Below, in pieces: positions 1,332 through 29,624 of a stretch of 32,000 nt of DNA. Origin of the DNA: Candidatus Lokiarchaeum ossiferum (GTDB lineage Archaea; Asgardarchaeota; Lokiarchaeia; Sigyniarchaeales; Promethearchaeaceae); assembly GCA_025839675.1 (NCBI GenBank), contig CP104013.1, positions 60,001 to 92,000 on the forward strand, written 5' to 3'. The position numbers and the translations under genes are program-made. Numbering within the stretch: the stretch's first letter is position 1; every line of letters begins with the position of its first letter. The notes under the pieces were generated by a model. It searched no databases and was not told where the DNA came from. It worked only from the letters and a program-made list of their open reading frames with translations.

Positions 1332-2342
1332 CTATTTTATATCTTCAGTGCGTAATACCCCTAATCGGATTATTTCTGAATTTCTTAAAATCAGTTTCAA
1401 TTTGTCAGTAAATATTTCAATGATTTCTGATAATCGTTCTCGTTCACTCAGCGATTTTGTTAAATCAATCCCCACAGTAAAGTAAAACGAAAACTTTGCA
1501 CTTCCGACAGAAATATCAAATTTTGTTGTGTTAATCTGCAAACTTTCCGTAGTTTTCGCATAATTTCCCTGGAGACTTCCCTCTATATAGATCTTTTGGT
1601 ATATCTGAATTAAAGACTGATTGATTTTTTTTAACGCTTCGGGCGAAGCATAATAATTTCCTATTTCAAAATCATTAACAAATAAAATCCCGAAATTCAA
1701 TTGATTGTCCAGACAAAATGCTTTAATGGTGCGACACAAAGTTTCGTATAAATTGGGATTTCTTAATAACGGTTGAGCAAAACTGGAGATGATACTAAAG
1801 GGATTATAGATTGAAGTATGAAAAATACTTGGAGTGATATCCAAAGACTGGATTGTAGGCAAGGTACCTTGAATAAACTCTTGCTCATTTCGAATCAACC
1901 TTGATTTATCTTCGTATTTTGTATCATATTTGTGGAAAAAAAGGTAAATTTTTAAATTTGGATTGAACTGATAGGCAATTTCTAATGATTTTAAGAAATA
2001 TGCCATACTTTGGCGAATTTTTGCAGATTCTTGCACATCAATTATGTAGTAGAGATATTTTATCCCCCGAAAATATTTCTGAGGTTGCCGCAGATAATTA
2101 TTCCGATATCTTTCTTGCCCGCCAAAATCCCAAATAACAAGCTGTCGTCCTAAAAATGAAATATCGGAACGATCTACCCCCTTGGTTGGGGCCAAGACCA
2201 TCAATGCTTCAAATTCATACAAAATGGTTTTGACCAAAGAAGTTTTTCCCGCATTGGCTAATCCTAAAATTGCGATTTTTTGAACTGAATTTAGTTCATC
2301 TTCAATTATTTTATTCAGTTCCTCTTTCACAAATTTATACAT
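1332..2342 (-). CDS. Rag/Gtr-family small GTPase with C-terminal roadblock domain
   Basis: 336 aa. P-loop GLANAGKTS, switch II WDFGGQE, and G4 as HKYD (Rag/Gtr use HKxD instead of NKxD). These are followed by IFHTSIYNPFSIISSFAQPLLRN, which parallels RagA [25 protein letters not shown], and then about 150 aa of roadblock-like C-terminal domain. A strong SD (AGGAGGA, 2351..2357) precedes the ATG. Confidence 0.85.
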   Translation of the reverse strand: MYKFVKEELNKIIEDELNSVQKIAILGLANAGKTSLVKTILYEFEALMVLAPTKGVDRSDISFLGRQLVIWDFGGQERYRNNYLRQPQKYFRGIKYLYYIIDVQESAKIRQSMAYFLKSLEIAYQFNPNLKIYLFFHKYDTKYEDKSRLIRNEQEFIQGTLPTIQSLDITPSIFHTSIYNPFSIISSFAQPLLRNPNLYETLCRTIKAFCLDNQLNFGILFVNDFEIGNYYASPEALKKINQSLIQIYQKIYIEGSLQGNYAKTTESLQINTTKFDISVGSAKFSFYFTVGIDLTKSLSERERLSEIIEIFTDKLKLILRNSEIIRLGVLRTEDIK

Positions 2343-6241: not shown

Positions 6242-6532
6242 ATGCTACCTACAAATGTAGAAAATTTATTAAACACGTTAAGTGTTTACATTGCTAAAAT
6301 CTTACTTATTTTAATCCCATTTATGGGAATAGTTCTTCCAATTGTGACAGCCTTTGGTAAAGTGATTCGTGCGTATGTTGAACCATTCTATGAATTTTTA
6401 CCTCAAAATCCTAATTTTTTCCAGTTTAATACAAATTGGATATATGTGATTCTAGGGGGTTTAATCCTAATTTGTGGATTGGTGGTAAATTTAGTATGGC
6501 CAGAAAGATCAAAAAGAAAAAATTCAAAGTGA
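6242..6532 (+). CDS. Hypothetical small membrane protein (2 TM)
   Basis: 96 aa with two long hydrophobic helices. AGGAGG at 6224..6229 lies 12 nt upstream of the ATG. It ends in TGA, so TGA is a normal stop in this genome. Confidence 0.55.
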   Translation: MLPTNVENLLNTLSVYIAKILLILIPFMGIVLPIVTAFGKVIRAYVEPFYEFLPQNPNFFQFNTNWIYVILGGLILICGLVVNLVWPERSKRKNSK

Positions 6533-6556
6533 AGAAAAAACTTAAGTTACCTAGAA

Positions 6557-7051
6557 ATGAGAGTAATTGTTAAATTTAAAACCATTCTTAATTTGGTCTG
6601 GGGGACACCGATCAATGGTCGGGAGGCTTTTGCATTTGTTCGTGGATTTCCTGCGACTTTTTTCTTAACTGAAAGGCGAGCTATAGTCGTTGGAGAGTTT
6701 ACAGAGAAAGTGGGATGGTTCAAACCAAAAAAAATGCATCGGATCATTTTTGAAGCCGGGCTCCATAAATTAAAGGAGTTTAACATTAGCATTATTCCCG
6801 AAAAACGAATTTTTGCGGGTTTTATCAGTTTTCACCCTCATAATCAAGTTGGGGAAAATGCCACCATTCAATTTTTAAAAATGCGCCCAGAAATTGGGAA
6901 AGTGATCGAAGATCATCTTTCAAATCTTGAAATTCGAAATCCTGCCGAAGATTCTGGCATCGTTATGGTGGACGCAACAGCTATTCCACCACAGCGTTGG
7001 TTAAATAAAAGATTTGGCAAAAAAGATGGAACCCCAAAGATTTTGTATTAA
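6557..7051 (+). CDS. Hypothetical soluble protein, last gene of the 4-gene cluster
   Basis: 164 aa. It lies 24 nt after the previous gene. No family recognised. Confidence 0.45.
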   Translation: MRVIVKFKTILNLVWGTPINGREAFAFVRGFPATFFLTERRAIVVGEFTEKVGWFKPKKMHRIIFEAGLHKLKEFNISIIPEKRIFAGFISFHPHNQVGENATIQFLKMRPEIGKVIEDHLSNLEIRNPAEDSGIVMVDATAIPPQRWLNKRFGKKDGTPKILY

Positions 7052-13831: not shown

Positions 13832-14599
13832 TTATTCTGAGTATCCGGAAGAATCATAGGCTCCTTTTGGAGGTTTTTTGATATCTTCTTCATCTAACTC
13901 TTCATCTCTTCTTGAGATCTCTTTTTCTTTAGATGTAGCATTCATTATTTCGTCATAATATTTGCGTCCTTTATGAAGATAATATATGTTTCTCAAATCT
14001 CTTACGGTGATATATCCCCAAAATGAAAAAGGGAGAATATACAATAATATCCCCCACCATGTGAATGATGTAATTGAAATAAAATAAGTAAATAGAAAAT
14101 AAATCGAAGTAAATAAACTGATCGCAAATAAAATCATTCTTCGTTTTGAATTTTTCTCAAATGTACCATGCTCTAAACCCGCATAACAAGTGCAACATAT
14201 AACCGGCATATTGACATGGTGTTTTTCCTTATAATATAGCGACATTAAAATCGAAAAAGGACGATCTATCTTCATTCCACATAGTTGGCATCGAATTTTT
14301 AATTTTAGCCGATCATTTTCAATTTTATCTACTTCACTTTTTGGGAAAAAGCAATTATCATTTTTATAGTGATCACAGTGCTTACAATTAAGCATTTTCT
14401 CAAATTCAATGGGAAATCGTTTTTTCAAATTTGTTTGGATGATTTTATCATAGTCTGTCTGGTGTTTACAATATGGAATTCCATCTTCATCAATTGTCCA
14501 TTCTGGCTGGATAATTCCGTCTTCATCATATATTTTTTCTTCATCCAAATTTGTGTCAATGGCTAGGTTTTTTTTTATATCATCTTTTCTATGGACCAT
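13832..14599 (-). CDS. Hypothetical Cys-rich (zinc-ribbon-like) protein with two C-terminal TM helices and an acidic tail
   Basis: 255 aa. The Cys pairs CKHC, CQLC and CCTC are followed by hydrophobic helices (MILFAISLFTSIYFLFTYFISI, WWGILLYILPFSFWGYI). Confidence 0.55.
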   Translation of the reverse strand: MVHRKDDIKKNLAIDTNLDEEKIYDEDGIIQPEWTIDEDGIPYCKHQTDYDKIIQTNLKKRFPIEFEKMLNCKHCDHYKNDNCFFPKSEVDKIENDRLKLKIRCQLCGMKIDRPFSILMSLYYKEKHHVNMPVICCTCYAGLEHGTFEKNSKRRMILFAISLFTSIYFLFTYFISITSFTWWGILLYILPFSFWGYITVRDLRNIYYLHKGRKYYDEIMNATSKEKEISRRDEELDEEDIKKPPKGAYDSSGYSE

Positions 14600-14736
14600 T
14601 TTTTATTCTCTGAGAAACTCGATTAAACTAAAGCTTACCTATATAAAATAAAGATATCCCATATAAATAATATTTTCTTTTGCTTTAGAAGCAATTTTAT
14701 TATCATAGCCTTAAAAAATATGAATAACTCCAAATG

Positions 14737-14746
14737 AAAAAAAAAA
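14737..14746 (-). terminator. T10 run (oligo-T terminator candidate) closing the 3' UTR of the candidate selenoprotein gene
   Basis: A10 on the plus strand equals U10 in the minus-strand transcript, directly after the structured element 14748..14815. Confidence 0.4.
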
Positions 14747-14747
14747 C

Positions 14748-14815
14748 CAAAGGATGTGTTTGCATTTGAATCAAATTCCCCCAAAGTTTTTTGAGAATTT
14801 TCATTTTCACCTTTG
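14748..14815 (-). promoter_or_regulatory. Candidate SECIS-like 3' UTR stem-loop
   Basis: In transcript sense, the basal helix is CAAAGGUG / CA(U)CCUUUG (8 bp, 1 bulge). An internal loop follows, then AUGA-[AAAUUC]...[GAAUUU]-GAU, which allows tandem sheared A.G/G.A plus U.U next to a 6-bp helix. A CAAA/UUUG mini-helix with an A-rich AAAC apical loop tops it. The element starts 19 nt after the TAA stop. Folded by hand only. Confidence 0.3.
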
Positions 14816-14834
14816 TTGAAGTGCAAAGAGCACT

Positions 14835-15149
14835 TTAATATGTTAATGAAAGATACCGATACATACCCAGTTTTTCTAAAGCAATCGAAGCGTTTTCAAC
14901 AAGCAACTTCATTTCGACATCTAAATATACCGGACATGGACACTTGTTGACTTTATACTCCATATATTGAACTTTAGCATGTAACAAATTTGTTTCTGAT
15001 TGAAAAGGATATTCAACATGTTTGATCTGTGTCGTTCTTTCGATCCCTCATCATCCTTTCTTTTTTGCATAGTAAATCAATAGAACTGGTTTATCCATCT
15101 TTTTTCCATGACGTAAAAGAAATTCTGCGGTTTCATCAGTTATTTGCAT
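14835..15149 (-). CDS. Candidate small selenoprotein with tandem in-frame TGA codons (G-U-U-G); the N-terminal half resembles HesB/IscA-like proteins
   Basis: Not in the ORF track. Manual translation gives MQITDETAEFLLRHGKKMDKPVLLIYYAKKKG-TGA-TGA-GIERTTQIKHVEYPFQSETNLLHAKVQYMEYKVNKCPCPVYLDVEMKLLVENASIALEKLGMYRYLSLTY-TAA. The frame stays open for 70 codons beyond the TGAs (15048..15053). The gene fills an otherwise empty 640-bp gap on the same strand as its neighbours. Confidence 0.45.
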
Positions 15150-15242
15150 CAAAATTATTACCAATTTCTAATAGAACTTAATAAAATAAAAATCCAGATA
15201 AAATGTTGATAAAAAAAATTGGAAAAGATGTACTTATGGGAA

Positions 15243-17354
15243 TTATCTAATTAGGGATCCGTTGGGGGCATCAGAACCAGGTCTTATTAGAGCGGCTCCT
15301 TTTTTCTTCATATCTGCTGCTAATAACATTCCATTTGATTCAATTCCGCGAATTGCTTTGGGTTCTAAATTTGTTAATACTGTAACTTGGGTTCCTTTGA
15401 TTTCTTCAGGAGAATATTGTTTTGCGATCCCAGCAACAATGGTTCGAGGTTTCTCTTCCCCAATATCTACTTGAAGGAGTAATAAATTCTTACTATCTGG
15501 AACATTTTCTGCAGTGATTACGGTTCCAACTCGCAAATCTAATTTTGTGAAGGTATCATAGTCAATAGTTGGTTTTTGTTTGCTTGATTTCTTCTTTCCA
15601 TTTTGCTTAGATGTTCCTTCTTCAGTATTTTCTTCTTCGGGTTTTCCTTGCATTCGATTGAGTTTCTTTTTCAATTCTTTAATATCAAGTTTCTGAAAAA
15701 GAGGTTTCGCCTTTGGGATAGATTGACCCACAGGTACTTTCAATTCTGAGGCGGAATCCCATAATACATCGTTAATTGATTCTTGACTTCCAATGGCAAT
15801 AAATATTTTTTGTGATATGCCTGGAATGTATGGTTGTAATAAAATTCCAATTGTTCTGACCATTTGAATTGATAAATTGAAGGTGTGACCTGCTTTTATT
15901 TTATTTGTTTTTATCATTTTCCATGGCGCTTTGTTGTTGATATAGATATTTCCTTGTCTTGCAATTCCAATAATTTCATTTAATGCTTCTTTCAACTTAA
16001 AGCGTTCAAGTAAATCTCCAACTATTTTGGAACTGGTTATTATCGTCTCAATGAGTTTTTGATCTTCTTCATCTAATTCACTCTCTTTGGGACCTTCAGG
16101 TACTTTTCCATCATATTGTCGACCAATGAAGGTTAAAGTTCGATGAATGAAGTTACCGATGATATCATTAACTTCTAAAACATCTTTTTCAAATTGATCC
16201 CATAAAAAATTGGTATCTTGCTTTTCCGGACGATTTCGTAGTAAGCTATATCTCCAATATTCCACGGGAGCTAATTCTAAAGCGTCATCAATCCAAATTC
16301 CAATTTTTCGAGATTTGGAAAATTTATCATTTTCATAATTTAAGAATTCGGTGGAACTGACATTGAAAGGCATGGTTAATTGCTTTTCTGGGGGTAAACC
16401 TTTGTTGTATGCCACTAATAAGCCAGGAAATATAATTAAATGAAATATTATGTTATCTTTCCCGATGAAATATACTGAACGTGTATTAGGATCATTCCAA
16501 AAATAGGAAAATTTAGAAGGATCTTTCTTAATTATTTCAGCCCACTCTTTCACTGCTGATACATATCCTAAAACCGCTTCAAACCATACATAGATTGATT
16601 TATTTTCTGATCCTTCAAAGGGTGCAGGAATTCCCCATTCCAAATCACGTGTAATTGCACGGCTTGGTAATCCTTCCTTTAGAAAATTAAGAGATGCAGA
16701 ACGAGCATTCGAGGGGAGATATTCGTTATCTTCTATGAATCCGCGGATACCTTCTTCAGTTTTGCCAAAATCTAAATACCAATGTTTCGTTCGTTTTTTA
16801 ATCGGAGTTTGTTTGCAATGTTTACAATGGACATTTATTAGATCTTCTGGTTCTAATAATTTCCCACAAGCATCACATTGATCTCCTCTTGCATTTTCTG
16901 ATTGGCAATGTGGACATGTTCCTTCCACAAAACGATCGGGAAGATATAATTTATCATGCTCACAGTAAAAGACATCATCTTCTTTGGTAGATACTAATCC
17001 ATTTTCTTCAACTTGTTTGTAAAAATTTTGTATGAACTGAATATGGGTTGGATTATGAGTATGTGTATAATTATCATACGAAATGTTCCATTTTAGAAAA
17101 AGATCTTTAATCTTTGCATGATTGATCTTAGTCAACTCTTCAGGGGTAATATTTTGTTCAATTGCACTCACTGCTACAGGAGTTCCATGCTCATCACTTC
17201 CAGAAACATAAATCGCTTCATCACCTTTTGATCGGACATACCGAACAAAAACATCTCCTGATAAAACACTGCCAATTAAATTTCCTAAATGAGGTGTTGC
17301 GTTGACGTATGGCCAAGCGCTAGTAATTATCCATTTTCTTTTTTTGCTTTCCAT
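15243..17354 (-). CDS. metG: Methionine--tRNA ligase with C-terminal Trbp111/EMAP-II-like tRNA-binding domain
   Basis: HIGH motif (PHLGNLIGS), KMSKS motif (KFSKSR), and zinc knuckles (CPHCQS..CDACG, CKHCK). The C-terminal OB fold is LDLRVGTVITAE...VDIGEEKPRTIVAGI. The track start at 17363 is GTG. The ATG at 17354 is preceded by AGGTG (17361..17365) and is preferred. Confidence 0.95.
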   Translation of the reverse strand: MESKKRKWIITSAWPYVNATPHLGNLIGSVLSGDVFVRYVRSKGDEAIYVSGSDEHGTPVAVSAIEQNITPEELTKINHAKIKDLFLKWNISYDNYTHTHNPTHIQFIQNFYKQVEENGLVSTKEDDVFYCEHDKLYLPDRFVEGTCPHCQSENARGDQCDACGKLLEPEDLINVHCKHCKQTPIKKRTKHWYLDFGKTEEGIRGFIEDNEYLPSNARSASLNFLKEGLPSRAITRDLEWGIPAPFEGSENKSIYVWFEAVLGYVSAVKEWAEIIKKDPSKFSYFWNDPNTRSVYFIGKDNIIFHLIIFPGLLVAYNKGLPPEKQLTMPFNVSSTEFLNYENDKFSKSRKIGIWIDDALELAPVEYWRYSLLRNRPEKQDTNFLWDQFEKDVLEVNDIIGNFIHRTLTFIGRQYDGKVPEGPKESELDEEDQKLIETIITSSKIVGDLLERFKLKEALNEIIGIARQGNIYINNKAPWKMIKTNKIKAGHTFNLSIQMVRTIGILLQPYIPGISQKIFIAIGSQESINDVLWDSASELKVPVGQSIPKAKPLFQKLDIKELKKKLNRMQGKPEEENTEEGTSKQNGKKKSSKQKPTIDYDTFTKLDLRVGTVITAENVPDSKNLLLLQVDIGEEKPRTIVAGIAKQYSPEEIKGTQVTVLTNLEPKAIRGIESNGMLLAADMKKKGAALIRPGSDAPNGSLIR

Positions 17355-17462
17355 TATTCTCACCTAAGGCACTAATATTGAGATAAAATGTATGCTAACA
17401 GATTAATTTTTTCTATCATACAACTATCTCGTTCATTAAGATGTGTTATTTTTGCGAATTTA

Positions 17463-17843: not shown

Positions 17844-19019
17844 TTAAACTATTTTTCCACCACAATTTTCACAAGATTTGTCTTTATCATACATATCCTT
17901 TAGACAACTAACGTGATACTTTGCGGAACAGCGATTGCATCGAAATACTTTGTCATTTTTTTCTTTTGCATTGATTTCTTTAAAACAGAAACTACATTCG
18001 AAATTTGTATTGATCAAATTTTGGGGCTTGATTCGAATCATTTTAGTGGTGTTATCTTTCTCATCGAAATTTATTTTTTTTACTTCTATCCCTTTTATTA
18101 TCTCTTTCGGCAGTTTTAATAACGTATAACAATAAGGGCACCGAAAAATGTTTTCTCCTTCCGAAGACTTCTTTGCCCAAACACCAGCACAATGGAGATG
18201 CATTGGAGTATCACAATGTGGACAAAGACGCCCTGTTAAAATAAAAGACAAATTGTTAATTGGACTATTCCGAGAAAAGCAAATCTGACATTTTATTGTG
18301 CTATTTCTTTTTTTAATTTCTTGAAATTCTTCTTCGGTTGGAAAACGTAAATATTCTGCTATTTCTGAAAGTTGTTCTTTATTTTTTGCTCTTAAAGAAA
18401 GCATTTGAAATGAAACATTATCAGTCTTTTGTTGAAGAGCAAAATTTCTAATACCTTTGAGTATACCTTTTTTTGAATGAAACTTCATAAAGGTACCATT
18501 TGTGGGAGTGACTAATTGGAGATATTCTGTCTCATTTATTGTATGGGATTTGTCCGAATAAACAAGTACATCAAATTTAACACCTAATTGTGTTAAAACT
18601 GGTATATATTTGGCAATCTCTGGGGTAAAATGAAAATCATAGCAGTCTGTAATTAAAAATACATGATTTGATTGTCCTCCGATAATTTGGATTTGATCCT
18701 TCAATATCTGAATGGCATTCTCTATGGAAAAAGTTAATTCTGCAATACTTCCTTGAGGAGGGTGATTATTAACAAATTTTTTTGAGGCGATTTGAGATAA
18801 TAGTGAACTTGTATCTTTTGTTAATCCAGAAAGCACGGTTGTTTCTTTTCCAAAGATGAAGAGACTGATAAAAGACGCATGATCAACTTGATTTTTGGTT
18901 TCAATAAATTCCTTTACTCCCTTCAAGGCGACATGAAATCGATTTGGTCTAAAATCTTTAATCGCAGTGGATTTAGTGTTGTCTAAAAGAATTACAAAAT
19001 TTTCAACGTTTTCATCCAT
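17844..19019 (-). CDS. Rpn10/TFIIH-p44(Ssl1)-type vWA domain protein with two C-terminal C4HC3 (PHD/RING-CH-like) zinc fingers
   Basis: 391 aa. N-terminal VILLDNTKSTAIKDFRPNRFHVALKGVKEFIE parallels Rpn10 VLVIDNSEYSRNGDFPRTRFEAQIDSVEFI and p44 [31 protein letters not shown]. Finger 1 is C244-x2-C-x18-C-x2-C-x4-H-x2-C-x16-C-x2-C (18129..18290). Finger 2 is C342-x2-C-x15-C-x2-C-x4-H-x2-C-x10-C-x2-C (17862..17996). Confidence 0.8.
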   Translation of the reverse strand: MDENVENFVILLDNTKSTAIKDFRPNRFHVALKGVKEFIETKNQVDHASFISLFIFGKETTVLSGLTKDTSSLLSQIASKKFVNNHPPQGSIAELTFSIENAIQILKDQIQIIGGQSNHVFLITDCYDFHFTPEIAKYIPVLTQLGVKFDVLVYSDKSHTINETEYLQLVTPTNGTFMKFHSKKGILKGIRNFALQQKTDNVSFQMLSLRAKNKEQLSEIAEYLRFPTEEEFQEIKKRNSTIKCQICFSRNSPINNLSFILTGRLCPHCDTPMHLHCAGVWAKKSSEGENIFRCPYCYTLLKLPKEIIKGIEVKKINFDEKDNTTKMIRIKPQNLINTNFECSFCFKEINAKEKNDKVFRCNRCSAKYHVSCLKDMYDKDKSCENCGGKIV

Positions 19020-21246: not shown

Positions 21247-23481
21247 TTATAATGCATCTAAAGCATTATTGAATGTTTCACTTGGACACATTGCCTTTAT
21301 TGCCAATTCTTCAACAGGTTTATAATATCCTCCGATATCAATCGGTTTACCTTGTACTGCAAGTAATTCATTGGCAATTTTTGACTCATTTTCAGCTAAG
21401 GTTTTTGCTAGGTTGGTGAATTTATTTTTCATTTCTTCATCCTTAGTTTGTGAAACTAGTTCTTGAGCCCAATACATCGCTAAATAGAAATGAGATCCTC
21501 GATTATCTATTTCATTAACTTTTCGAGAAGGAGATCTGTTATTATCTAAATATTTTTCAACGGCTTTATCAAGTGTTTCAGAAAGAAGAAGTGCCTTTGG
21601 ATTATTAGTTCTTTTACCTATATGAGTTAATGAACCAGGTAAAGCCATGAATTCTCCTAAGGAATCCCACCGTAAATGATTTTCTGCCATGAATTGTTGC
21701 ACGTGTTTTGGAGCTGAACCACCCGCCCCTGTTTCAAATAAGCCTCCCCCATTCATTAATGGCACGATAGAAAGCATCTTTGCACTTGTCCCAACTTCAA
21801 GGATTGGAAAAAGATCTGTAAGATAATCTCGAAGCACATTACCAGTTACTGCAATAGCGTCTTTTCCTTGATGGATAATTTCACAGGCATTTTGAGTTGC
21901 GTCATCTGGAGCCATTATTTTTATGTCTAATCCCGTTGTATCATGATCTTTCAAATATACATTGACCTTCTTAATGAGTTCTGCATCATGGGCTCGATTT
22001 TCATCTAACCAGAATACCGTTGGAAAGCCCGTTGTTCGTGCTCGATTCACAGTTAATTTTACCCAATCTTGAACTGGTAAATCTTTTGTTTGACACATTC
22101 GGAAAAGATCACCATCTTCAACTTTTCGTTCAAGTAAAACTTCATTAGATTCAGATAAAACTTGAACAACTCCTTGACCATGAATTTCAAAAGTTTTGTT
22201 ATGGGAGCCATATTCTTCCGCTTTTTGTGCCATTAAACCAATATTTTGGACAGATCCCATAGTTGAAGGATTAAATGCACCATGCTCTTTACAAAAGTCA
22301 ATGGTTTTTTGAAAAACTCCCGCATAGCTACTGTCTGGGATAACGAATTTGGTATCATAAGCCTTACCATCTGGACCCCACATCTGTCCACCATTTCGAA
22401 TAGCTGCAGGCATAGAAGCATCTATGATAACATCGCTTGGAACGTGAAGGTTTGTGATACCTTTATCAGAATTAACCATTGCAAGCTTGGGGTTCTTTGA
22501 ATAACACGCATCAATATCATCATTTATTTCTTTTTGTTTTTCAGAAGATAAACTTTTGATTTTAGCATAAAGTTCTCCTAATCCATTATTTGGACTGATA
22601 CCAAGTTGTTTAAATGTTTCCGCATGTTTTTCAAATACCTCTTTGAAGTATACTGAGACCACATGCCCAAAAATGATTGGATCAGAAACTTTCATCATAG
22701 TTGCTTTCAAATGAATTGAAAATAGTATTTCTTTTTCTTTTGCATCCTTTACTTGTTCTTCTAAAAAGGTTCGTAAAGCATTTTTACTCATGGCTGAAGC
22801 ATCAATAATCTCTCCGGGGATTAATGGTAATTTTCCTAAAAGAACTGTCTTTTTACCTGTTGTATCAATAAATTCGATTCTACTATTACCCGCTGTTTGC
22901 TCGGTTATAGTTTTGGAAATCTCGGTGGTTCTAAGATCTCCTGCTTTCATTGTTGCAACATGAGATTTGGATTCTTTAGTCCATTTACCCATTGAATGCG
23001 GATTTTTTTTAGCATAATTTTTAACCGGAGTAGGAACTCGTCGATCAGAATTCCCCATTCTTACTACAGGATTTACGGCACTTCCCTTAACAATATTGAA
23101 TGTTTTTTGAATCTTCTTTTCTTCATCTGTTTGAGGATCCTCTGGATAATCTGGAATCTTGTAACCTTTTTCTTGTAATTCTTTAACTGCTGCTTTTATC
23201 TGTGGAATTGATGCACTGATATTTGGAAGTTTAATTATATTCGCTTCTGGTTGGAGAACTAATTCTCCTAATTCTTCTAAGGCATTCGGTTGTCGTTGCT
23301 CTTCGGTTAAGTATTGAGGGAAATTAGCAATTATTCTTCCTGCCAAAGAGATATCCTTCGTTTCTATTTCGATCCCTGCCACTTCTGTGAATTTCTTGAC
23401 AATTGGAAGTAAAGAATAGGTGGCTAGCCGTGGAGCTTCGTCTACTCTTGTATAAATAATTTTTTCATTAGATTGAGTCAT
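21247..23481 (-). CDS. icd: Monomeric-type NADP-dependent isocitrate dehydrogenase (about 740 aa class)
   Basis: [66 protein letters not shown] and [18 protein letters not shown] match the remembered Corynebacterium/Azotobacter monomeric IDH almost block for block. The track start at 23493 is GTG. The ATG at 23481 ([11 protein letters not shown]) is preferred. Confidence 0.9.
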
Positions 23482-23542
23482 GATATGAGTCACTTTTTAT
23501 AATTTTGTTTTGAAAAAATAAAAAAAAGAAAAAGAATGGGGT

Positions 23543-25375
23543 TTAATCGTAAAGGATTTCATCCCAAGGTTGACGATAGAGTCGTGATCGTTGTCGTTTT
23601 TGATCAAAAACATGTCCCATCATACCAATAGATCGCCCTAATACAAAAAGACCATTCAATGCTTCACTGGAGATAACATCATCTTTTTCGTCAGTAGTGA
23701 AATCTAAGTTCTCCAATAAATCTAAGAAACAAATTCCAATACACCCATCAACATTCAAAATTAAGTTATTTCGTTTTGATGTTGTTAGTTTTTCTACTTC
23801 TAAAGCATAATCAAGGTATGGATGTTTTGGGAAATTTTTCATTACATAGTCTTTCAAAAGAACTACACGGACATCAGGATTTTGGACAGATTTGATCCGA
23901 TGGCCAATTCCAGGGATATTTTTCTTCTCTACTTTCTTCATATAAGAAATAAATTCAGTAGGGCTCATTCCTTTATCATAAGCCATTCGGAAGTATCGAG
24001 CACCATCAGAAATCGCACCACCGAATCGTGGTCCAATGGTTAGAATACCTGTGGCTAAGGAAGACATTAAATCCTTGCCTGCACGAGCTGTGACTATTGC
24101 ATTGTGGGCACCACTTACTGCTGGACCATGGTCTGCTGTAAGTTTAATTACCATTTCAACATACTCTTGAGCATAATCAGGTAATTCTTTCTTAAACCAA
24201 AGCATTCCAATAACATATCCTAAAGATTTATTTTCTTTGATAATAGCATCTAACCCTTTCTTATTATAGGTTGGAACATCTCCTCTATCATCAGAAATGC
24301 TGACAACAACATCAGTTGGTCTCCGTACTAAACCTTCTTTGAGTGCTTGAGCAAAGTCCATTGGAATCTTTGGTGGTTCAACTTCAACAATTTCTTCAAT
24401 TTTTCCCTCAGATTTGAGTTTATTGAATACTTCAGCAATTAATTCTCCAAAATGATCATAAGTACTTGGCACATGGGCTCCAGCTTCTTTTAATGCCTTA
24501 TTTTTCGCTTCTGCTGTTTCTAAATCACTCCCAGCCATGGCACCTGCATGTCCGAATTGTAATCCCTTTGGTAAAATTTTGGCAGCCGTTCCAGTTACCC
24601 AAATAACTAAAGGTTTAGTTATTTGCTTTGTTTTTAAAGCTTCCACAATTTTATATTCGTCAGTTCCCCCGATTTCACCGAGACATACTAACATTTTGAT
24701 CTTGGGATTTTTCTCATATCGTAATAAGTGATCAATTAACGAAGCACCAGGATATCGGTCTCCACCAATTGCAATACTCTCAAAGATACCATCGGAATTT
24801 TGGGCAATCATGAAGTTCATTTCATTGCTCATTCCACCTGATTTGGAAACAAATCCGACTGAACCAGGGCGATACATTTTTGAGAGTATAACATTCTCGG
24901 TAGTTCCAGCGGTGTTTCCAATCTTGAAAGCACCAGCACGAATTCCTCCAACAGTTGCAGGACCAATGATCATTTTATTTCGATCACGGGCTATTTTTCC
25001 TAAAATTCGACTTTGACGTTCTGGAATTCCTTCAGCAATAATTGCAACCGTACGGATAGAGTCTGTTTCCAATGCTTCTTTACTCGTCTCGAATGAAGAA
25101 CGGAATGAAGCAAAATTTACTACTACATCAGCATTAGGGTGTCTTTCAGCTGCAAGTTTAAATGATTTATATACTGGGATGATTATTTCTTTTACTCCAA
25201 AGAATACTTTGTGAGTTGCTACTGCAGGTCCTTGGGTTGGTCGAATAACGGCTGCTACAGAAGGTGTTTCACGTCGGCAGACATAATCGAAATCGATCAT
25301 CCGTTGGATTGCTTTGGTTTGAAAACCATAAACTATGGCTTGGGTCTTTTCATTAAATAATTCGTAATCTTCCAT
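23543..25375 (-). CDS. aclA: ATP-citrate lyase alpha subunit (CoA-binding/phosphohistidine domain plus citrate-synthase-like citryl-CoA lyase domain)
   Basis: 610 aa. The phospho-His loop is FGHAGAMAGS. The succinyl-CoA-synthetase-alpha-like N-terminal half includes GPATVGG and SKSGGMSNE. The C-terminal citrate-synthase-like region is TADHGPAVSGAHN. The ATG lies 1 nt after the aclB stop (TAA-A-ATG). Confidence 0.92.
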   Translation of the reverse strand: MEDYELFNEKTQAIVYGFQTKAIQRMIDFDYVCRRETPSVAAVIRPTQGPAVATHKVFFGVKEIIIPVYKSFKLAAERHPNADVVVNFASFRSSFETSKEALETDSIRTVAIIAEGIPERQSRILGKIARDRNKMIIGPATVGGIRAGAFKIGNTAGTTENVILSKMYRPGSVGFVSKSGGMSNEMNFMIAQNSDGIFESIAIGGDRYPGASLIDHLLRYEKNPKIKMLVCLGEIGGTDEYKIVEALKTKQITKPLVIWVTGTAAKILPKGLQFGHAGAMAGSDLETAEAKNKALKEAGAHVPSTYDHFGELIAEVFNKLKSEGKIEEIVEVEPPKIPMDFAQALKEGLVRRPTDVVVSISDDRGDVPTYNKKGLDAIIKENKSLGYVIGMLWFKKELPDYAQEYVEMVIKLTADHGPAVSGAHNAIVTARAGKDLMSSLATGILTIGPRFGGAISDGARYFRMAYDKGMSPTEFISYMKKVEKKNIPGIGHRIKSVQNPDVRVVLLKDYVMKNFPKHPYLDYALEVEKLTTSKRNNLILNVDGCIGICFLDLLENLDFTTDEKDDVISSEALNGLFVLGRSIGMMGHVFDQKRQRSRLYRQPWDEILYD

Positions 25376-25376
25376 T

Positions 25377-26660
25377 TTAATTTCCTCCTTTTAAGGCTAA
25401 GGGTACAATTCGAGTTAAGGGTGTATAACGGTCATGTACTTCAATATCTAAACCTAATTCTATTCCAATTTCTTTCATCATTTGTAACCCTTCTTTTTCA
25501 TAAGGTCCACCTCGACGAACGTAGATCTTCACATTAGCTTTCTTCAATTGATCGACTTTCTTTCGGAAGGCTTTTACAATTCCTGAAAAGGTCGCTTTTA
25601 CATTTGTGAAGTTTGCAATGCCTCCAGCAATGAAAAGATATTTTGGTTTTCCTGCAGGATCTGGGTTTTTGGTCATTAAATCAATTACTGTCTCGGCATA
25701 TAATTGAGTATGTTCTAGAGATGGATTTCCAGAATATTCTCCGTAATTGGAAAGTTCCATTCCAAAACCTAAATCTGCGATGGTATCTGTAAAGATTACA
25801 GAAGCACCTCCTCCAGATAATAGAGTCCAAATGTGGCCATCAGGGTTTAATAAATTGAACTTTAATGAAGCACCAGTTTTTGCATCTAAACTGTCAATAA
25901 ATTGTTCAGATTCGGTTAATTCCATACCAAATCCGCCTGGAAATTCTACTGGTGCATCAGGTGTGTTCCATGTATCATTATGTAAGAAATATGCAGTATT
26001 GTCTAAGCGAGATTTCAAATCTAATGGAACAATTTCTTTTTCTGCTGTTATTGCAAATGGGTTAATTTCTAAGAAGGCAAAGTCTTGATCTTGATAAACA
26101 TGCAAGAGCGCTCTAACAAATGGAACAACAACATCTCCAAAATCACCTAAATCTGGTAATTGTCCTTTGAAATCAAAGGTTGCAAGATCTGCTGTAAATG
26201 GAACTTTAATATGAGTAACTTTATCCCAATTTTCTTCAACGAAAATTCCTCCTTCTAAACTGAAGTGGATTATATCATAATCTCGATCTGATGTAATGGA
26301 AACATAATATTCTTTCTCATGTGGGACAAAAGGTTCGACTAATAATCGAGTCAATTTTCCTTTTTTACCACTAATTTCAAATACTTTGTCCAATTTCTCC
26401 GCCGCAAAGGCTTTCAATTGATCCAAATTGGCATCTAACAAAAGTAAATTTGCTTTACCTCGTTTTCCGAATAATTGGTCTGGTTTTGCAACAAGTTTGT
26501 CGGTTTTTAACCATGGTAATTCTTCTGCCAACTTGTCAATATCGGTTTCTGGAGTAAGTACCGCAAGTTTATTGTGGAATTTGAACTCCGGGAAATATTT
26601 TGGAATTTGGCTAGCTAAGAGCTTTTTTCCGTCATATTCATAGATTGGTTTTTGAGCCAT
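25377..26660 (-). CDS. aclB: ATP-citrate lyase beta subunit (ATP-grasp / citrate-binding)
   Basis: 427 aa. LVAKPDQLFGKRGK, LVEPFVPH, DAKTGASLKFNLLNPDGHIWTLLSGGGASVIFTDTI, NYGEYSG, GGIANFTNVKATFSGIV and VRRGGPYEKEGL parallel the N-terminal part of eukaryotic ACLY. Confidence 0.92.
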   Translation of the reverse strand: MAQKPIYEYDGKKLLASQIPKYFPEFKFHNKLAVLTPETDIDKLAEELPWLKTDKLVAKPDQLFGKRGKANLLLLDANLDQLKAFAAEKLDKVFEISGKKGKLTRLLVEPFVPHEKEYYVSITSDRDYDIIHFSLEGGIFVEENWDKVTHIKVPFTADLATFDFKGQLPDLGDFGDVVVPFVRALLHVYQDQDFAFLEINPFAITAEKEIVPLDLKSRLDNTAYFLHNDTWNTPDAPVEFPGGFGMELTESEQFIDSLDAKTGASLKFNLLNPDGHIWTLLSGGGASVIFTDTIADLGFGMELSNYGEYSGNPSLEHTQLYAETVIDLMTKNPDPAGKPKYLFIAGGIANFTNVKATFSGIVKAFRKKVDQLKKANVKIYVRRGGPYEKEGLQMMKEIGIELGLDIEVHDRYTPLTRIVPLALKGGN

Positions 26661-26695
26661 TTGTATTTCCTTCTTTGTCTTATTTAAAAAAAAAA

Positions 26696-28627
26696 TTATG
26701 ACCCGTAGGTCAAACTTCCACCTGCAATAATAATGTCAGTTTCACGTTCGGATAAATTATAGGTGGAATGGATATCAAATCCTTGGGTTTCATTACGAAC
26801 AATGATATCTTTACCTTCTTTTAAAGATGCTATGATATTTTTTATGGAGAGAATATCTCCTTGCTTGATTTTATCATAATCCTCTTCATTTTTGAATTCC
26901 AGCGGTAAAATCCCAAAGTTTACAAGATTATCTTTATGAATTCGTGCATAAGATTTGACTAATTTTGCTTTTATACCTAAATACATGGGAGCTAAAGCCG
27001 CATGTTCTCGGCTAGAGCCTTGACCATAATTTGATCCTCCAACAACAACACCACCACCTGCTTCCTTCGCTTTTAATGCTCGATTTGGAAAATCTTCATC
27101 AATCTGCTCAAAAACATGCATGCTGATCAAAGGTAGATTTGAACGCAAGGGTAATATTTTAGCACCGGCTGGCATAATATGATCCGTTGTAATATCATCT
27201 TCTACTTTAATAACTACGGAAAGATGATCAAATTGATCTGGTAATGGGAAGAAATCGGGCAACGGGGCTATATTAGGACCGCGGATGATTTCCACTTCAT
27301 CGGCTTTTTCTACTGAAGCTGGTTCCAATATCATGGAATCATCAATTTCTAACGATTCTGGCATTTTGAATTTTGGATAATCTCCAAGTTTACGAGGATC
27401 GGTCACTTCTCCAAAAATAGCCGCTGCAACTGCGACTTCTGGGCTAACTAAATACACATTAGCACTTTTTACACCACTTCTTCCAAAGAAGTTTCGATTG
27501 AAAGTACAAAGTCGAACAGCATTAGTTTTTGGTGCAAATCCAATTCCGATACATGGACCGCATGCATTTTCCAGCATTCGTGCTCCTGCTGCATAGAAAT
27601 TAGCTAAACTACCATCTTTTGCCAGTTCTGCAACAACTTGTCTAGATCCAGGTGAGATTCCAAGGACTGTGGCACGAGCTATTTTCTTTCCTTTCAATAA
27701 TTGAGCAACTGTCCATAAATCTTTTAAAGAACTGTTTGTACACGAACCGATTGCAACTTGGTCCACTTTCATTCCATATAATTCGGATAATGGCACAACA
27801 TTTCCTGGGGAATGAGGTTTAGCAATCAAAGGTTCAAGTTCTGATAAATTTATTTCCATAATTTCATCAAAATCTTCATCTTTCCCTTCAGGAAGTTCGA
27901 TCCATTGATCTTCTCGCCCTTCTAAGGCTAAAAATTGTTTTGTAATTTCATCGGATGGAAACACAGAAGTAGTTGCACCAGTTTCCGCACCCATGTTGGT
28001 TATTGTTGCACGTTCGGGAACAATTAAGGTTTTCACACCTGGTCCAAAATATTCTAAAATGTGCCCTACACCACCCTTAACTCCGATTCGGCGTAATACT
28101 TCTAAGATTACATCTTTGGCCGCAACGAAGGGTTGTAATTTTCCGGTAAGTTTAATCCCCATAATTTTAGGTGTTTTTAAGTGGAATGAACCTCCTCGCA
28201 TTGCGATAGCTATATCCAATCCTCCAACACCGATTGCTATTTGTCCCATTCCTCCCGCTGTAGGAGTATGTGAATCAGATCCAATTAATGTTTTTCCAGG
28301 TCGGGCAAATCTTTCCAAGTTCACTTGATGACAGATTCCATTTCCTGGTCGGGAACATTTAATTCCGTATTTGTCTGCAATTGACATTAAATATCGATGA
28401 TCATCAGGATTTTTAAAGTCAGATTGGAGAGTATTATGGTCTATATAGGAAACGGAGAGTTCAGTTGTCACACGTTTCACTTTCATGGCTTCAAATTGTA
28501 AATAAGCCATTGTTCCAGTTGCATCTTGAGTTAAGGTTTGATCGATCTTAATACCAATTTCCTTACCAACTTCCCATGCCCCTTCAACAATGTGCTCTTT
28601 CAATATTTTTCTCGCAACACTTGTCAT
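26696..28627 (-). CDS. acn: Aconitate hydratase (about 640-aa fused large+small type)
   Basis: The Fe-S and substrate motifs are GSDSHTPTAGG, IGSCTNSS, CGPCIGIG and the swivel-domain GGSNYGQGSSREHAA. The track ORF extends to 28723, but that extension is hydrophobic junk. The ATG at 28627 (MTSVARKILKEH) has GAGGT (28638..28642) 10 nt upstream. Confidence 0.9.
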   Translation of the reverse strand: MTSVARKILKEHIVEGAWEVGKEIGIKIDQTLTQDATGTMAYLQFEAMKVKRVTTELSVSYIDHNTLQSDFKNPDDHRYLMSIADKYGIKCSRPGNGICHQVNLERFARPGKTLIGSDSHTPTAGGMGQIAIGVGGLDIAIAMRGGSFHLKTPKIMGIKLTGKLQPFVAAKDVILEVLRRIGVKGGVGHILEYFGPGVKTLIVPERATITNMGAETGATTSVFPSDEITKQFLALEGREDQWIELPEGKDEDFDEIMEINLSELEPLIAKPHSPGNVVPLSELYGMKVDQVAIGSCTNSSLKDLWTVAQLLKGKKIARATVLGISPGSRQVVAELAKDGSLANFYAAGARMLENACGPCIGIGFAPKTNAVRLCTFNRNFFGRSGVKSANVYLVSPEVAVAAAIFGEVTDPRKLGDYPKFKMPESLEIDDSMILEPASVEKADEVEIIRGPNIAPLPDFFPLPDQFDHLSVVIKVEDDITTDHIMPAGAKILPLRSNLPLISMHVFEQIDEDFPNRALKAKEAGGGVVVGGSNYGQGSSREHAALAPMYLGIKAKLVKSYARIHKDNLVNFGILPLEFKNEEDYDKIKQGDILSIKNIIASLKEGKDIIVRNETQGFDIHSTYNLSERETDIIIAGGSLTYGS

Positions 28628-29624
28628 TTTAGCATAAACCTCAAAATTTAGTATTGAAAAATTGTAAATAACGAGAACTTGCATCACTTGGATGACAGAT
28701 AAGAAATAGCGATTTAATATCAATAAATTCCAATTTATGTGGTTTTATCATTAAAAACTTTTCCAAAGATGGTAAATTATCGTCTTACTATTTGTCCAAT
28801 CTCACGAATTAGGTTATAAATAATATGCGTTCTTGGGCAAATGTACTTACTTAATATTTATATTAGAAAATCCAAATATAAATCTTTCTTAAAATTAATC
28901 TCAGATCATAAAAATATGCAACATGATCCCATTTTACTATAGACTCGATCATGAAAATGAGCATTAATTGGTATTTCAGTATTCCATAAATATGAAATTT
29001 ACAAAATTGTGAGGCGTCTACAAAAATTTTTGTTTTACAGAAAAATTAATGATGTAGAAAATTTAACCACAGTTATTTTTTCAATTTTTGACTTATTTTT
29101 CATTTTTATTTTTATAATACTAAAAAAAAGAATTTTTAATTTTGATTTTTGTAACTTTATTTTAAGCCTGCTACTTGATCACTTGTCACATTATGAGTAG
29201 ATTAATTTATTTTAGAAAAAAACCTAAAATGTTATTTATATTCATTATTTTTGGCGGTCTTATGGTGAGTTTGGCTACTTCTTTTGCTCTCTTCAAATCC
29301 AAAGAAATTTATATTATAATAATAGCTTCTAAAAGATTGATTAATTTTAAATCCATTTACTAAGAATACGGTAATTGAAGTAATTGATCCAAACGTATTT
29401 GCTTTCCTTGTTATCGCATCTTTTTGGGAGTAGTCATTATTCTATAGAAATTCTTTGTGATTTTCTTGAAAAATTATTTTATCATAAAGGCAAAAGTAAT
29501 TCATAGACATTTAAATTTAAGATACCTCTGATGACAAGATCTTTTTAAATAAAGTTATAGTATGAGCAATATATACTTAAAAATAGTCCATTAAGCCACA
29601 AGCTTTAAATATTCTGTCGGGTAA

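Follow-up and report, generated by a model that had tools for sequence, protein, structure and literature searches.

In Asgard archaea, selenoprotein genes are reported to use a eukaryote-like selenocysteine insertion sequence (SECIS) located in the 3′ untranslated region (3′UTR). The lokiSECIS was defined by an AUGA, a 9-bp stem, an apical loop of 11 nt with adenines first and an ultraconserved G last, and a GA (rarely AA) after the stem, placed in the 3′UTR close to the end of the coding sequence (CDS) (Mariotti et al. 2016, PMC4989117). In that study, one SECIS serves separated UGAs in the HdrA-VhuD gene of Loki and in SelL. Selenocysteine (Sec, U) is used by 85.9% of Lokiarchaeia/Helarchaeales genomes (Huang et al. 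2024, PMC11227280), and L. ossiferum is not mentioned in the text or the available supplements of that paper. The Asgard selenoproteome has been described as seven families (SelD, FrhA/VhuU, HdrA, FrhD/VhuD, Prx-like, AhpF-N-like, and DsbA-like), and only HdrA, Prx, and MvhD were found by Sun et al. Here, we analysed a 32,000-nt stretch of the Candidatus Lokiarchaeum ossiferum genome (GenBank assembly GCA_025839675.1, contig CP104013.1, positions 60,001 to 92,000 of the forward strand; hereafter the window), which very probably contains a genuine gene whose tandem UGA is read as Sec-Sec under the direction of a lokiSECIS in its 3′UTR (hereafter the UU gene, and the UU family for the gene and its relatives). 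The original prediction, made from the sequence alone, had proposed a real gene with local Sec recoding of UGA-UGA, and this core claim was borne out by the conservation of the TGAs, the selection acting on the frame, and the SECIS, with Sec as the predicted residue.

Compared with the described selenoprotein genes of Loki (PrxL, VhuU, and HdrA-VhuD; PMC4989117, PMC11227280), the UU gene has the same recoding signal at the same 3′UTR position, and the use of one element for more than one UGA, as proposed for the UU gene, has counterparts in HdrA-VhuD and in PrxL.1, which carries two Sec in its redox box. However, the UU family is a different one, outside the seven listed Asgard families, and its two Sec are adjacent. 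The loop of its SECIS mostly reads [A/G]UAAAC instead of AAAAA, and no Cys homologues of the family were found in the searches described below. Multiple Sec residues are also present in SelL (UxxU), SelP, and VhuD (PMC4989117), where SelL and VhuD decode more than one UGA with a single SECIS, and adjacent chalcogen residues, as in the UU protein, are present in the CU-dipeptide selenoproteins tabulated in a 2026 review (PMC13188914). That review deals with 119 prokaryotic selenoprotein families, most of them with a single Sec, and a text search of it gave no UU motif; searching the literature for neighbouring Sec residues or tandem UGA likewise yielded nothing relevant.

The UU gene lies on the minus strand in a gap of 643 bp between metG (15243..17363, −) and an open reading frame (ORF) for a 255-aa Zn-ribbon membrane protein (13832..14599, −), where the genome annotation of Ca. 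Lokiarchaeum ossiferum has no gene. Its frame starts at ATG 15149..15147 and continues with 32 sense codons in total, TGA TGA in a G-x-x-G context, 70 sense codons, and TAA 14837..14835; all of the coordinates originally given for it were exact on re-reading of the sequence. The N-terminal 32 codons encode MQITDETAEFLLRHGKKMDKPVLLIYYAKKKG, and the predicted product is MQITDETAEFLLRHGKKMDKPVLLIYYAKKKG-U-U-GIERTTQIKHVEYPFQSETNLLHAKVQYMEYKVNKCPCPVYLDVEMKLLVENASIALEKLGMYRYLSLTY, the part after the TGAs starting with GIERTT and ending with GMYRYLSLTY. The original prediction had regarded the 70-codon continuation as unlikely by chance, which proved to be a weak argument: when the 643-nt gap was shuffled 5000 times, 4% of the sequences held 104 or more codons in a row without TAA or TAG and 17% held 70 or more without any stop, and the opposite strand of the gap holds a TAA/TAG-free run of 116 codons, longer than the candidate frame. 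Frame length was not used as evidence, and the gene was judged to be real because of the comparative evidence.

A search of 5.8 billion proteins with the product in which U was replaced by C retrieved one relative, a 65-aa ‘fragment’ on contig L001. The full frame of L001 reads MQITEETAAFLSRHGKKMDHPVLLVYYAKKKG-TGA-TGA-GIERSV..., and its product is the closest relative of the window protein (75% identity). With the last 70 residues as query, HMMER run exhaustively against 1.84 billion cluster representatives retrieved ten more members, and a profile search retrieved four further members, one of which was checked at the DNA level. Three of the ten HMMER-found members were full-length proteins reading G-W-W-G, for which the underlying DNA is G-TGA-TGA-G; these false proteins arose because the contigs had been called with the TGA=Trp code (code 4). 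The others of the ten were truncated calls, and the frame upstream of them again contained TGA TGA. Three more database proteins, beyond the loci examined in DNA, read GWWG. The stored C-terminal fragments are 38–74 aa long with arbitrary internal starts (ATG, GTG, or TTG), and the public entries for L002, L003, L004, and proteins P0002, P0004, P0007, and P0013–P0015 are either such fragments or GWWG translations. The expectation that gene callers would miss this gene was thus correct, with the gene unannotated in the source genome and its relatives stored as fragments or GWWG proteins. The relatives come from metagenomes only, and scans of GTDB genomes and JGI metagenomes with N- and C-terminal patterns returned no loci, the window's own genome likewise not being returned.

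TGA TGA was present at the same aligned column of one continuous frame in all 13 loci, from at least 8 assemblies, with 34–75% amino acid identity to the window protein, and the single-frame architecture of the window gene is common to twelve homologous loci. The dyad stands in the context G-U-U-G at 12 loci and A-U-U-G at the remaining one, and none of the 13 loci has TGG, TGT, TGC, or any other codon at the TGA pair. The flanking Gly codons vary (GGA, GGT, GGG, and GGC) and synonymous sites are saturated, yet TGATGA is invariant. In the Nei-Gojobori comparison with L001, dN/dS was 0.09 and 0.10 for the 32 codons before and the 70 codons after the TGAs, respectively, and the corresponding dS values were 1.1 and 2.0; the TGATGA hexamer was unchanged and the flanks of the gene were not conserved. 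Two outcomes that would have spoken against the original prediction, homologues ending at the TGAs and neutral substitution downstream of them, were not seen: sequence is kept on either side of TGA TGA at 13/13 loci, none of which ends there, and selection after the TGAs is purifying. The tandem UGA is conserved in frame, and the gene is real.

Regarding the recoding signal, the 3′UTR of the window gene contains an element that, on its sequence, is a lokiSECIS by the published features (AUGA, stem, loop, GA, and position), with the AUGA 30 nt past the stop and a core helix that corresponds to the minimum free energy (MFE) fold. A strict pattern (ATGA, 0–2 nt, perfect stem of at least 7 bp, loop of 8–16 nt, 0–2 nt, and GA) has a chance rate of ~0.003 per 100 nt and matched two sites in the window's 64 kb of both strands, one of which is this SECIS. 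An Rfam scan of 14400..15400 gave only noise and no SECIS family match. A lower helix, in which CAAAGG+UGAA (14815..14806) pairs with UUCA (14770..14767) and CCUUUG (14753..14748), is tentative because it is absent from the alignment of relatives and was seen in the MFE structure only. Directly 3′ of the SECIS is a T10 run, the probable 3′ end of the mRNA as judged from the sequence; T-runs 3′ of the SECIS are also present in L004, L005, L006, L008, L010, and L012. The coordinates of the features are listed in Table 1.

Table 1. Features of the UU gene and its 3′UTR, in window coordinates
Feature	Position	Strand	Basis or remark
CDS of Sec-Sec protein (predicted), 104 codons + TAA	14835..15149	−	sequence, homologues, dN/dS
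Tandem in-frame UGA UGA, codons 33-34, G-U-U-G context	15048..15053	−	TGATGA invariant, 13/13 loci
Small hairpin AGUGC-UCUUU-GCACU (5 bp) directly after TAA	14820..14834	−	MFE fold; not conserved in relatives
Full predicted SECIS including lower helix	14748..14815	−	MFE structure only
lokiSECIS core, eukaryote-like type I, 3′UTR	14768..14807	−	MFE fold, pattern, covariance model
AUGA	14804..14801	−	SECIS core
5′ arm AAAUUCUC	14800..14793	−	SECIS stem
Apical loop AAAAAACUUUGG, 12 nt	14792..14781	−	SECIS loop
3′ arm GGGAAUUU	14780..14773	−	SECIS stem
GA, then U	14772..14771	−	3′ of SECIS stem
T10 run directly 3′ of SECIS	14737..14746	−	sequence; like archaeal oligo-T terminator

The same element recurs among the relatives. 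In 7 of 11 loci, the strict pattern lies no more than 100 nt 3′ of the stop, for which arithmetic from the chance rate gives a probability of the order of 1e-15; the element of L006 carries an AAGA core variant, that of L012 a single stem mismatch (noticed by eye and then scored by model), and L011 has no 3′ flank. In total, a clear SECIS element was identified in 9 of 12 loci (the window and 8 others), with 35–46 bits under a core-only model that scored nothing else in 52 kb above 19 bits. The stems differ fully in sequence and stay complementary, as in AAAUUCUC/GGGAAUUU, AAUAUUUC/GAAAUAUU, CCCACAUC/GAUGUGGG, GGAAUUUC/GAAAUUCC, and others. RNAalifold predicted the same 8-bp helix with double compensatory changes in 8/8 pairs; the stem has 8 Watson-Crick or G-U pairs, and a ninth position pairs in some members. 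Several features that the scanner did not demand are also conserved, namely the last G of the loop (8/8 sequences of the alignment), a loop start of [A/G]UAAAC or AAAAC, a U after the GA (8/9 elements), A's before the AUGA (most elements), and the stop-adjacent position. Among the nine aligned elements, AUGA is present in eight and GA in all; the loop length ranges from 10 to 16 nt with an invariant AAA, and the distance from the stop to the AUGA ranges from −4 to +90 nt. A leave-window-out covariance model (R2), built from seven other loci, had its best match in the whole window (both strands, 64 kb) at 14752..14822 (−), with 28.6 bits and E=5.4e-4. The next-best covariance matches were 2243..2317 (−, ~21 bits) and 16273..16348 (−, 16–21 bits); these lie inside the intact CDSs of a Gtr1/RagA GTPase and metG with several mispairs, and are most likely due to chance.

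Outside the UU gene, TGA was an ordinary stop. The 24 long ORFs of the window, which are stop-free by construction and have no in-frame TGA, end with TAA (22), TAG (1), and TGA (1). The only TGA-ended one encodes a 96-aa protein with two transmembrane (TM) segments; its TGA at 6530..6532 (+), within 6242..7051, shares the frame of the following ORF (6557..7051), from which 8 sense codons separate it. A second read-through at 6530..6532 was considered and rejected, in that 35/35 homologues are stand-alone proteins corresponding to the downstream ORF only (mostly 150–180 aa) and there is no SECIS; the same homologue search returned no homologues of the upstream 96-aa ORF. Because all 35 homologues are stand-alone proteins, this TGA is an ordinary stop, in agreement with the original prediction. 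TGA also ends ordinary genes on related contigs (two of five on L005, one of three on L010, and one of four on L012), none of which contains a TGA in frame. This makes the recoding a local one, and a genome-wide reassignment of TGA was rejected because of the ordinary stops in the window and on related contigs.

The members of the UU family are ~103–113 aa long with invariant M1, U33, U34, G35, P48, F49, G95, and L100. They share an MQI/MKI start, the block K-x-x-G-U-U-G-I-E-R, and the C-terminal motif G-M-Y-[RK]-Y-L, and G-[TGA-TGA]-G-I-E-R is the most conserved block of the family. The best-scoring curated family was NF041239 (‘CC/Se motif family (seleno)protein’), represented by a hypothetical selenoprotein of Moorella thermoacetica, which was matched by 10 of 12 members (best E 2.2e-4) over nearly its full length (profile positions 4-87 of 91). 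NF041239 is, however, bacterial and has a CxxU motif with one Sec according to the 2026 review, in contrast to the G-U-U-G with two adjacent Sec of the UU family. PF01521 (HesB/IscA) was matched weakly by 6 of 12 members (best 0.002), TIGR01911 (HesB-like selenoprotein) was not matched at E<=1, and a PDB sequence search with the family profile returned nothing relevant. HesB/IscA proteins, including TIGR01911 of Methanococcales, resemble the UU protein in their length of ~100 aa, the N-terminal motif ‘I-T/S-x-x-A-x-x-F-L’, and a hydrophobic strand, after which a putatively equivalent G-[C/U]-x-G would place Sec or Cys on the same loop as the UU dyad. IscA and SufA were also the best structural neighbours of a weak model: for an AlphaFold (AF2) model of a full-length member, the top six of 350,000 chains in Foldseek were all IscA, SufA, or AQ_1857 (best E 0.54, not significant). 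In hhalign, a weak alignment with E. coli IscA (sequence checked against PDB entry 1s98) spanned 83 columns and placed G-U-U-G on G-C35-S-G (E 0.0017, probability 16%); the family ends at IscA residue 92, before C99-G-C101, so the C-terminal C-x-C ligands are absent. TIGR01911 differs in having UxGP with one Sec according to the 2026 review, as opposed to two Sec and no C-terminal C-x-C in the UU family. In its sequence, the UU protein distantly resembles a shortened A-type-carrier/HesB-like domain and is a member of no curated family.

In the proposed mechanism, the lokiSECIS past the TAA would bring in the Sec-specific elongation factor of archaea with its Sec-tRNA(Sec), and this one element would serve both UGAs in succession, giving a product of 104 residues with a G-Sec-Sec-G dyad at residues 33-34. 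The dyad would be located on the loop that follows the first long beta-strand, at the place of the cluster-ligand Cys35 of IscA, and its two vicinal selenols would constitute the whole active site. They may work as a redox couple in which a vicinal diselenide is reversibly reduced to the diselenol, which would be the all-selenium counterpart of the G-C-U-G of thioredoxin reductase, or may, as a pair of selenolates, ligate a metal or an Fe-S/Fe-Se centre at the interface of a dimer. Sec at both codons, together with this fold and chemistry, is what we infer as most likely from the sequence. Mammalian thioredoxin reductase has its C-terminal G-C-U-G, with one Cys and one Sec, on the flexible tail of a large flavoenzyme. 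There, as in the UU protein, vicinal chalcogens stand between glycines and an eight-membered ring would be formed, by a selenenylsulfide in the former and a diselenide in the latter; however, the UU dyad has two Sec and would be an internal loop of a 12-kDa protein, so that the analogy is one of mechanism only. A more far-reaching and tentative proposal, which we regard as possible rather than probable, is that the family, present in cultured Asgard archaea, is an obligate selenium family without a sulfur counterpart in current sequence space, combining an invariant Sec-Sec chemistry beyond that of Cys-Cys or Cys-Sec with processive double recoding under a single SECIS. The candidate chemistries would be a vicinal diselenide couple of very low potential, or the handling of selenide/perselenide or Fe-Se.

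Several observations weigh against the recoding or the protein assignment. Neither a tRNA nor any gene of the Sec machinery (tRNA-Sec, EFsec, PSTK, SepSecS, or SPS) is present in the window. Of the forms that the original prediction proposed to look for in homologues at the aligned positions (Cys-Cys, Sec-Cys, or TGA), only TGA TGA was found, throughout: the C-terminal profile detected no Cys homologues at the UGA sites among the 1.84 billion representatives, and the full-length profile detected no Cys-Cys or Sec-Cys form in the 5.8-billion set, which leaves the family without the classical Sec/Cys pair; the remote families IscA and NF041239 do carry Cys close to this site, in a weak alignment. 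With three covariance models, no SECIS was recognisable in L001 (170 nt of 3′ flank) or L004 (519 nt), and the copy in L009, though in its expected position, is degenerate (AUGC...AA, 11 bits). In folding energy, the window element did not surpass shuffles (z = −0.57, in AT-rich RNA), and the proportion of paired cells among the elements (93.8%, compared with 58.7% after shuffling and no more than 68% in slid-partner controls) is partly circular because the elements were first picked by a scanner that demands a stem. Regarding the protein, the affinity to HesB/IscA and CC-motif families put forward in the original prediction remained as a remote similarity below every curated cut-off, with the window protein scoring 16.7 bits (E 0.0056) for NF041239 against a cut-off of 40 bits, and PF01521 scoring 14 bits against a gathering threshold of 26.3. 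The C-P-C pair that had been pointed out is present at codons 70-72 of the window frame and is not conserved in the family, where most members keep the second Cys only and L006 and L007 have none. The AF2 model was of low confidence (pLDDT 54).

With these points taken into account, two explanations without selenium were weighed against Sec-Sec decoding. The UGAs could be read as a standard amino acid (Gly, Cys, or, as in code 4, Trp), either throughout the genome or through near-cognate suppression, as the six family members publicly translated as G-W-W-G and the rarity of TGA as a stop in the window (1/24) would suggest. We consider this very unlikely: a tolerated Trp or Cys should appear as TGG or TGY among 13 diverged loci, where it never does, and a conserved, covarying lokiSECIS is present in the 3′UTR; this reading is also opposed by the lack of in-frame TGA in the 24 long ORFs (with the proviso on their construction given above), by the real stop at 6530, and by the TGA-ended genes on related contigs. 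The least probable explanation is that UGA UGA is a true double stop, separating a 32-aa peptide from a distinct C-terminal protein of ~50–70 aa, or marking a decaying pseudogene. A tandem stop is an efficient terminator, callers do give C-terminal fragments of 38–74 aa with ATG, GTG, or TTG starts, and L001 and L004 lack a recognisable SECIS. Nevertheless, both parts are in one frame with no spacer in 13/13 loci and are under equally strong purifying selection; the internal starts of the called fragments are not conserved, because their positions differ between loci; the block around the TGAs is the most conserved part of the family; the junction lies inside the profile matches to NF041239 and IscA; and pseudogenes do not keep a dN/dS near 0.1 over 13 lineages.

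A third alternative accepts Sec-Sec and concerns its role: the dyad could be a metal or Fe-S (Fe-Se) ligand on an A-type-carrier-like scaffold, making the protein an assembly or delivery factor, for example in the maturation of Se-dependent hydrogenase or Hdr, and not a redox diselenide. This would be a possible, though not the expected, role. It draws on the remote IscA/HesB similarity with the first U on ligand Cys35, the CU and GxUC motifs in (2Fe-2S)-binding selenoproteins (Table 1 of the 2026 review, PMC13188914), the HesB-like selenoprotein known in methanogens (same review), and the P-C-P cysteine in most members, but the family stops short of the C-terminal C-x-C ligands of IscA, L006 and L007 lack the extra Cys, and linkage to Fe-S, hydrogenase, or Hdr genes is not conserved, the order of the neighbours (metG and the Zn-ribbon membrane protein) being explained by general synteny among close relatives. 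Because some members have no other Cys and the family has no Cys version, the diselenide/diselenol redox couple is slightly favoured over the metal-ligand option.

SECIS-directed recoding of UGA was already known; what is new here is the family, its obligate adjacent Sec-Sec dyad, and the absence of a Cys form. The UU family would be an eighth, taxonomically restricted selenoprotein family of Asgard archaea, missed by published surveys because their methods need known families or Sec/Cys pairs, neither of which it offers. With two consecutive UGAs and one 3′UTR SECIS, the gene provides a natural test of how processive decoding is in the archaeal/eukaryote-like Sec system, regarded as the ancestor of its eukaryotic counterpart, and the Sec-Sec prediction is directly testable because Ca. 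Lokiarchaeum ossiferum is in culture. The gene also exposes annotation artefacts, including a missing call, fragments, and false ‘GWWG’ proteins in public databases.

Some further features were observed in the 3′ regions of individual loci. By-eye variants of the element in L001 (AAGAU..., AUAAACCUGC loop, ~486-525, no 3′ GA) and L004 (AGGA...GAU, interrupted stem) were not supported by the models. For the missing element at 391..560 of L001, where a convergent ORF is called in the 3′ flank, a variant element, a SECIS past the contig end, or an assembly problem (560-nt scaffold) could each account. In L005, the UGA stop of the gene forms part of the AUGA of the SECIS (590-593; ..AAA-UGA-UCCCACAUC..), so that the stop and SECIS overlap and a third UGA of the mRNA serves as the stop. 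In several loci, a second short hairpin follows 2–3 nt past the 3′ GA of the SECIS, with different stems and some similar loops, in L005 (626-639, CUCCU-GCCC-AGGAG), L006 (409-420, CACU-GCCC-AGUG), L002 (~473-486), and, as CCCA-CGCCAU-UGGG, L008 (~608-621) and L012 (5570-5583). This hairpin could be an extended part of the SECIS or a terminator hairpin.

The order of metG, the UU gene, and the Zn-ribbon membrane gene is kept in L005, L006, and L007, together with further flanking genes, and therefore reflects general synteny and not a specific functional link. The 255-aa protein encoded at 13832..14599 (−) has several CxxC motifs, C-terminal TM segments, and no Pfam match; it is conserved beside the UU gene in L005, L006, and L007 (51–66% identity), and its start is visible in L002. 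Elsewhere in the window, the product of ORF 6557..7051 (+) matches the hypothetical protein NEF87_000060 of Candidatus Lokiarchaeum ossiferum with 100% identity, and its other matches are Promethearchaeota, including Promethearchaeum syntrophicum. The low number of this locus tag suggests that the window is located close to the beginning of the chromosome record. Further genes of the window, of Asgard type, code for a Gtr1/RagA-family GTPase and a protein with vWA and RING-finger domains, both of eukaryote-signature type (1332..2342, −, and 17844..19019, −, respectively). A cluster of genes for aconitase, two ATP-citrate-lyase subunits, and monomeric isocitrate dehydrogenase (21247..28723, −) suggests a reverse or branched tricarboxylic acid cycle module.

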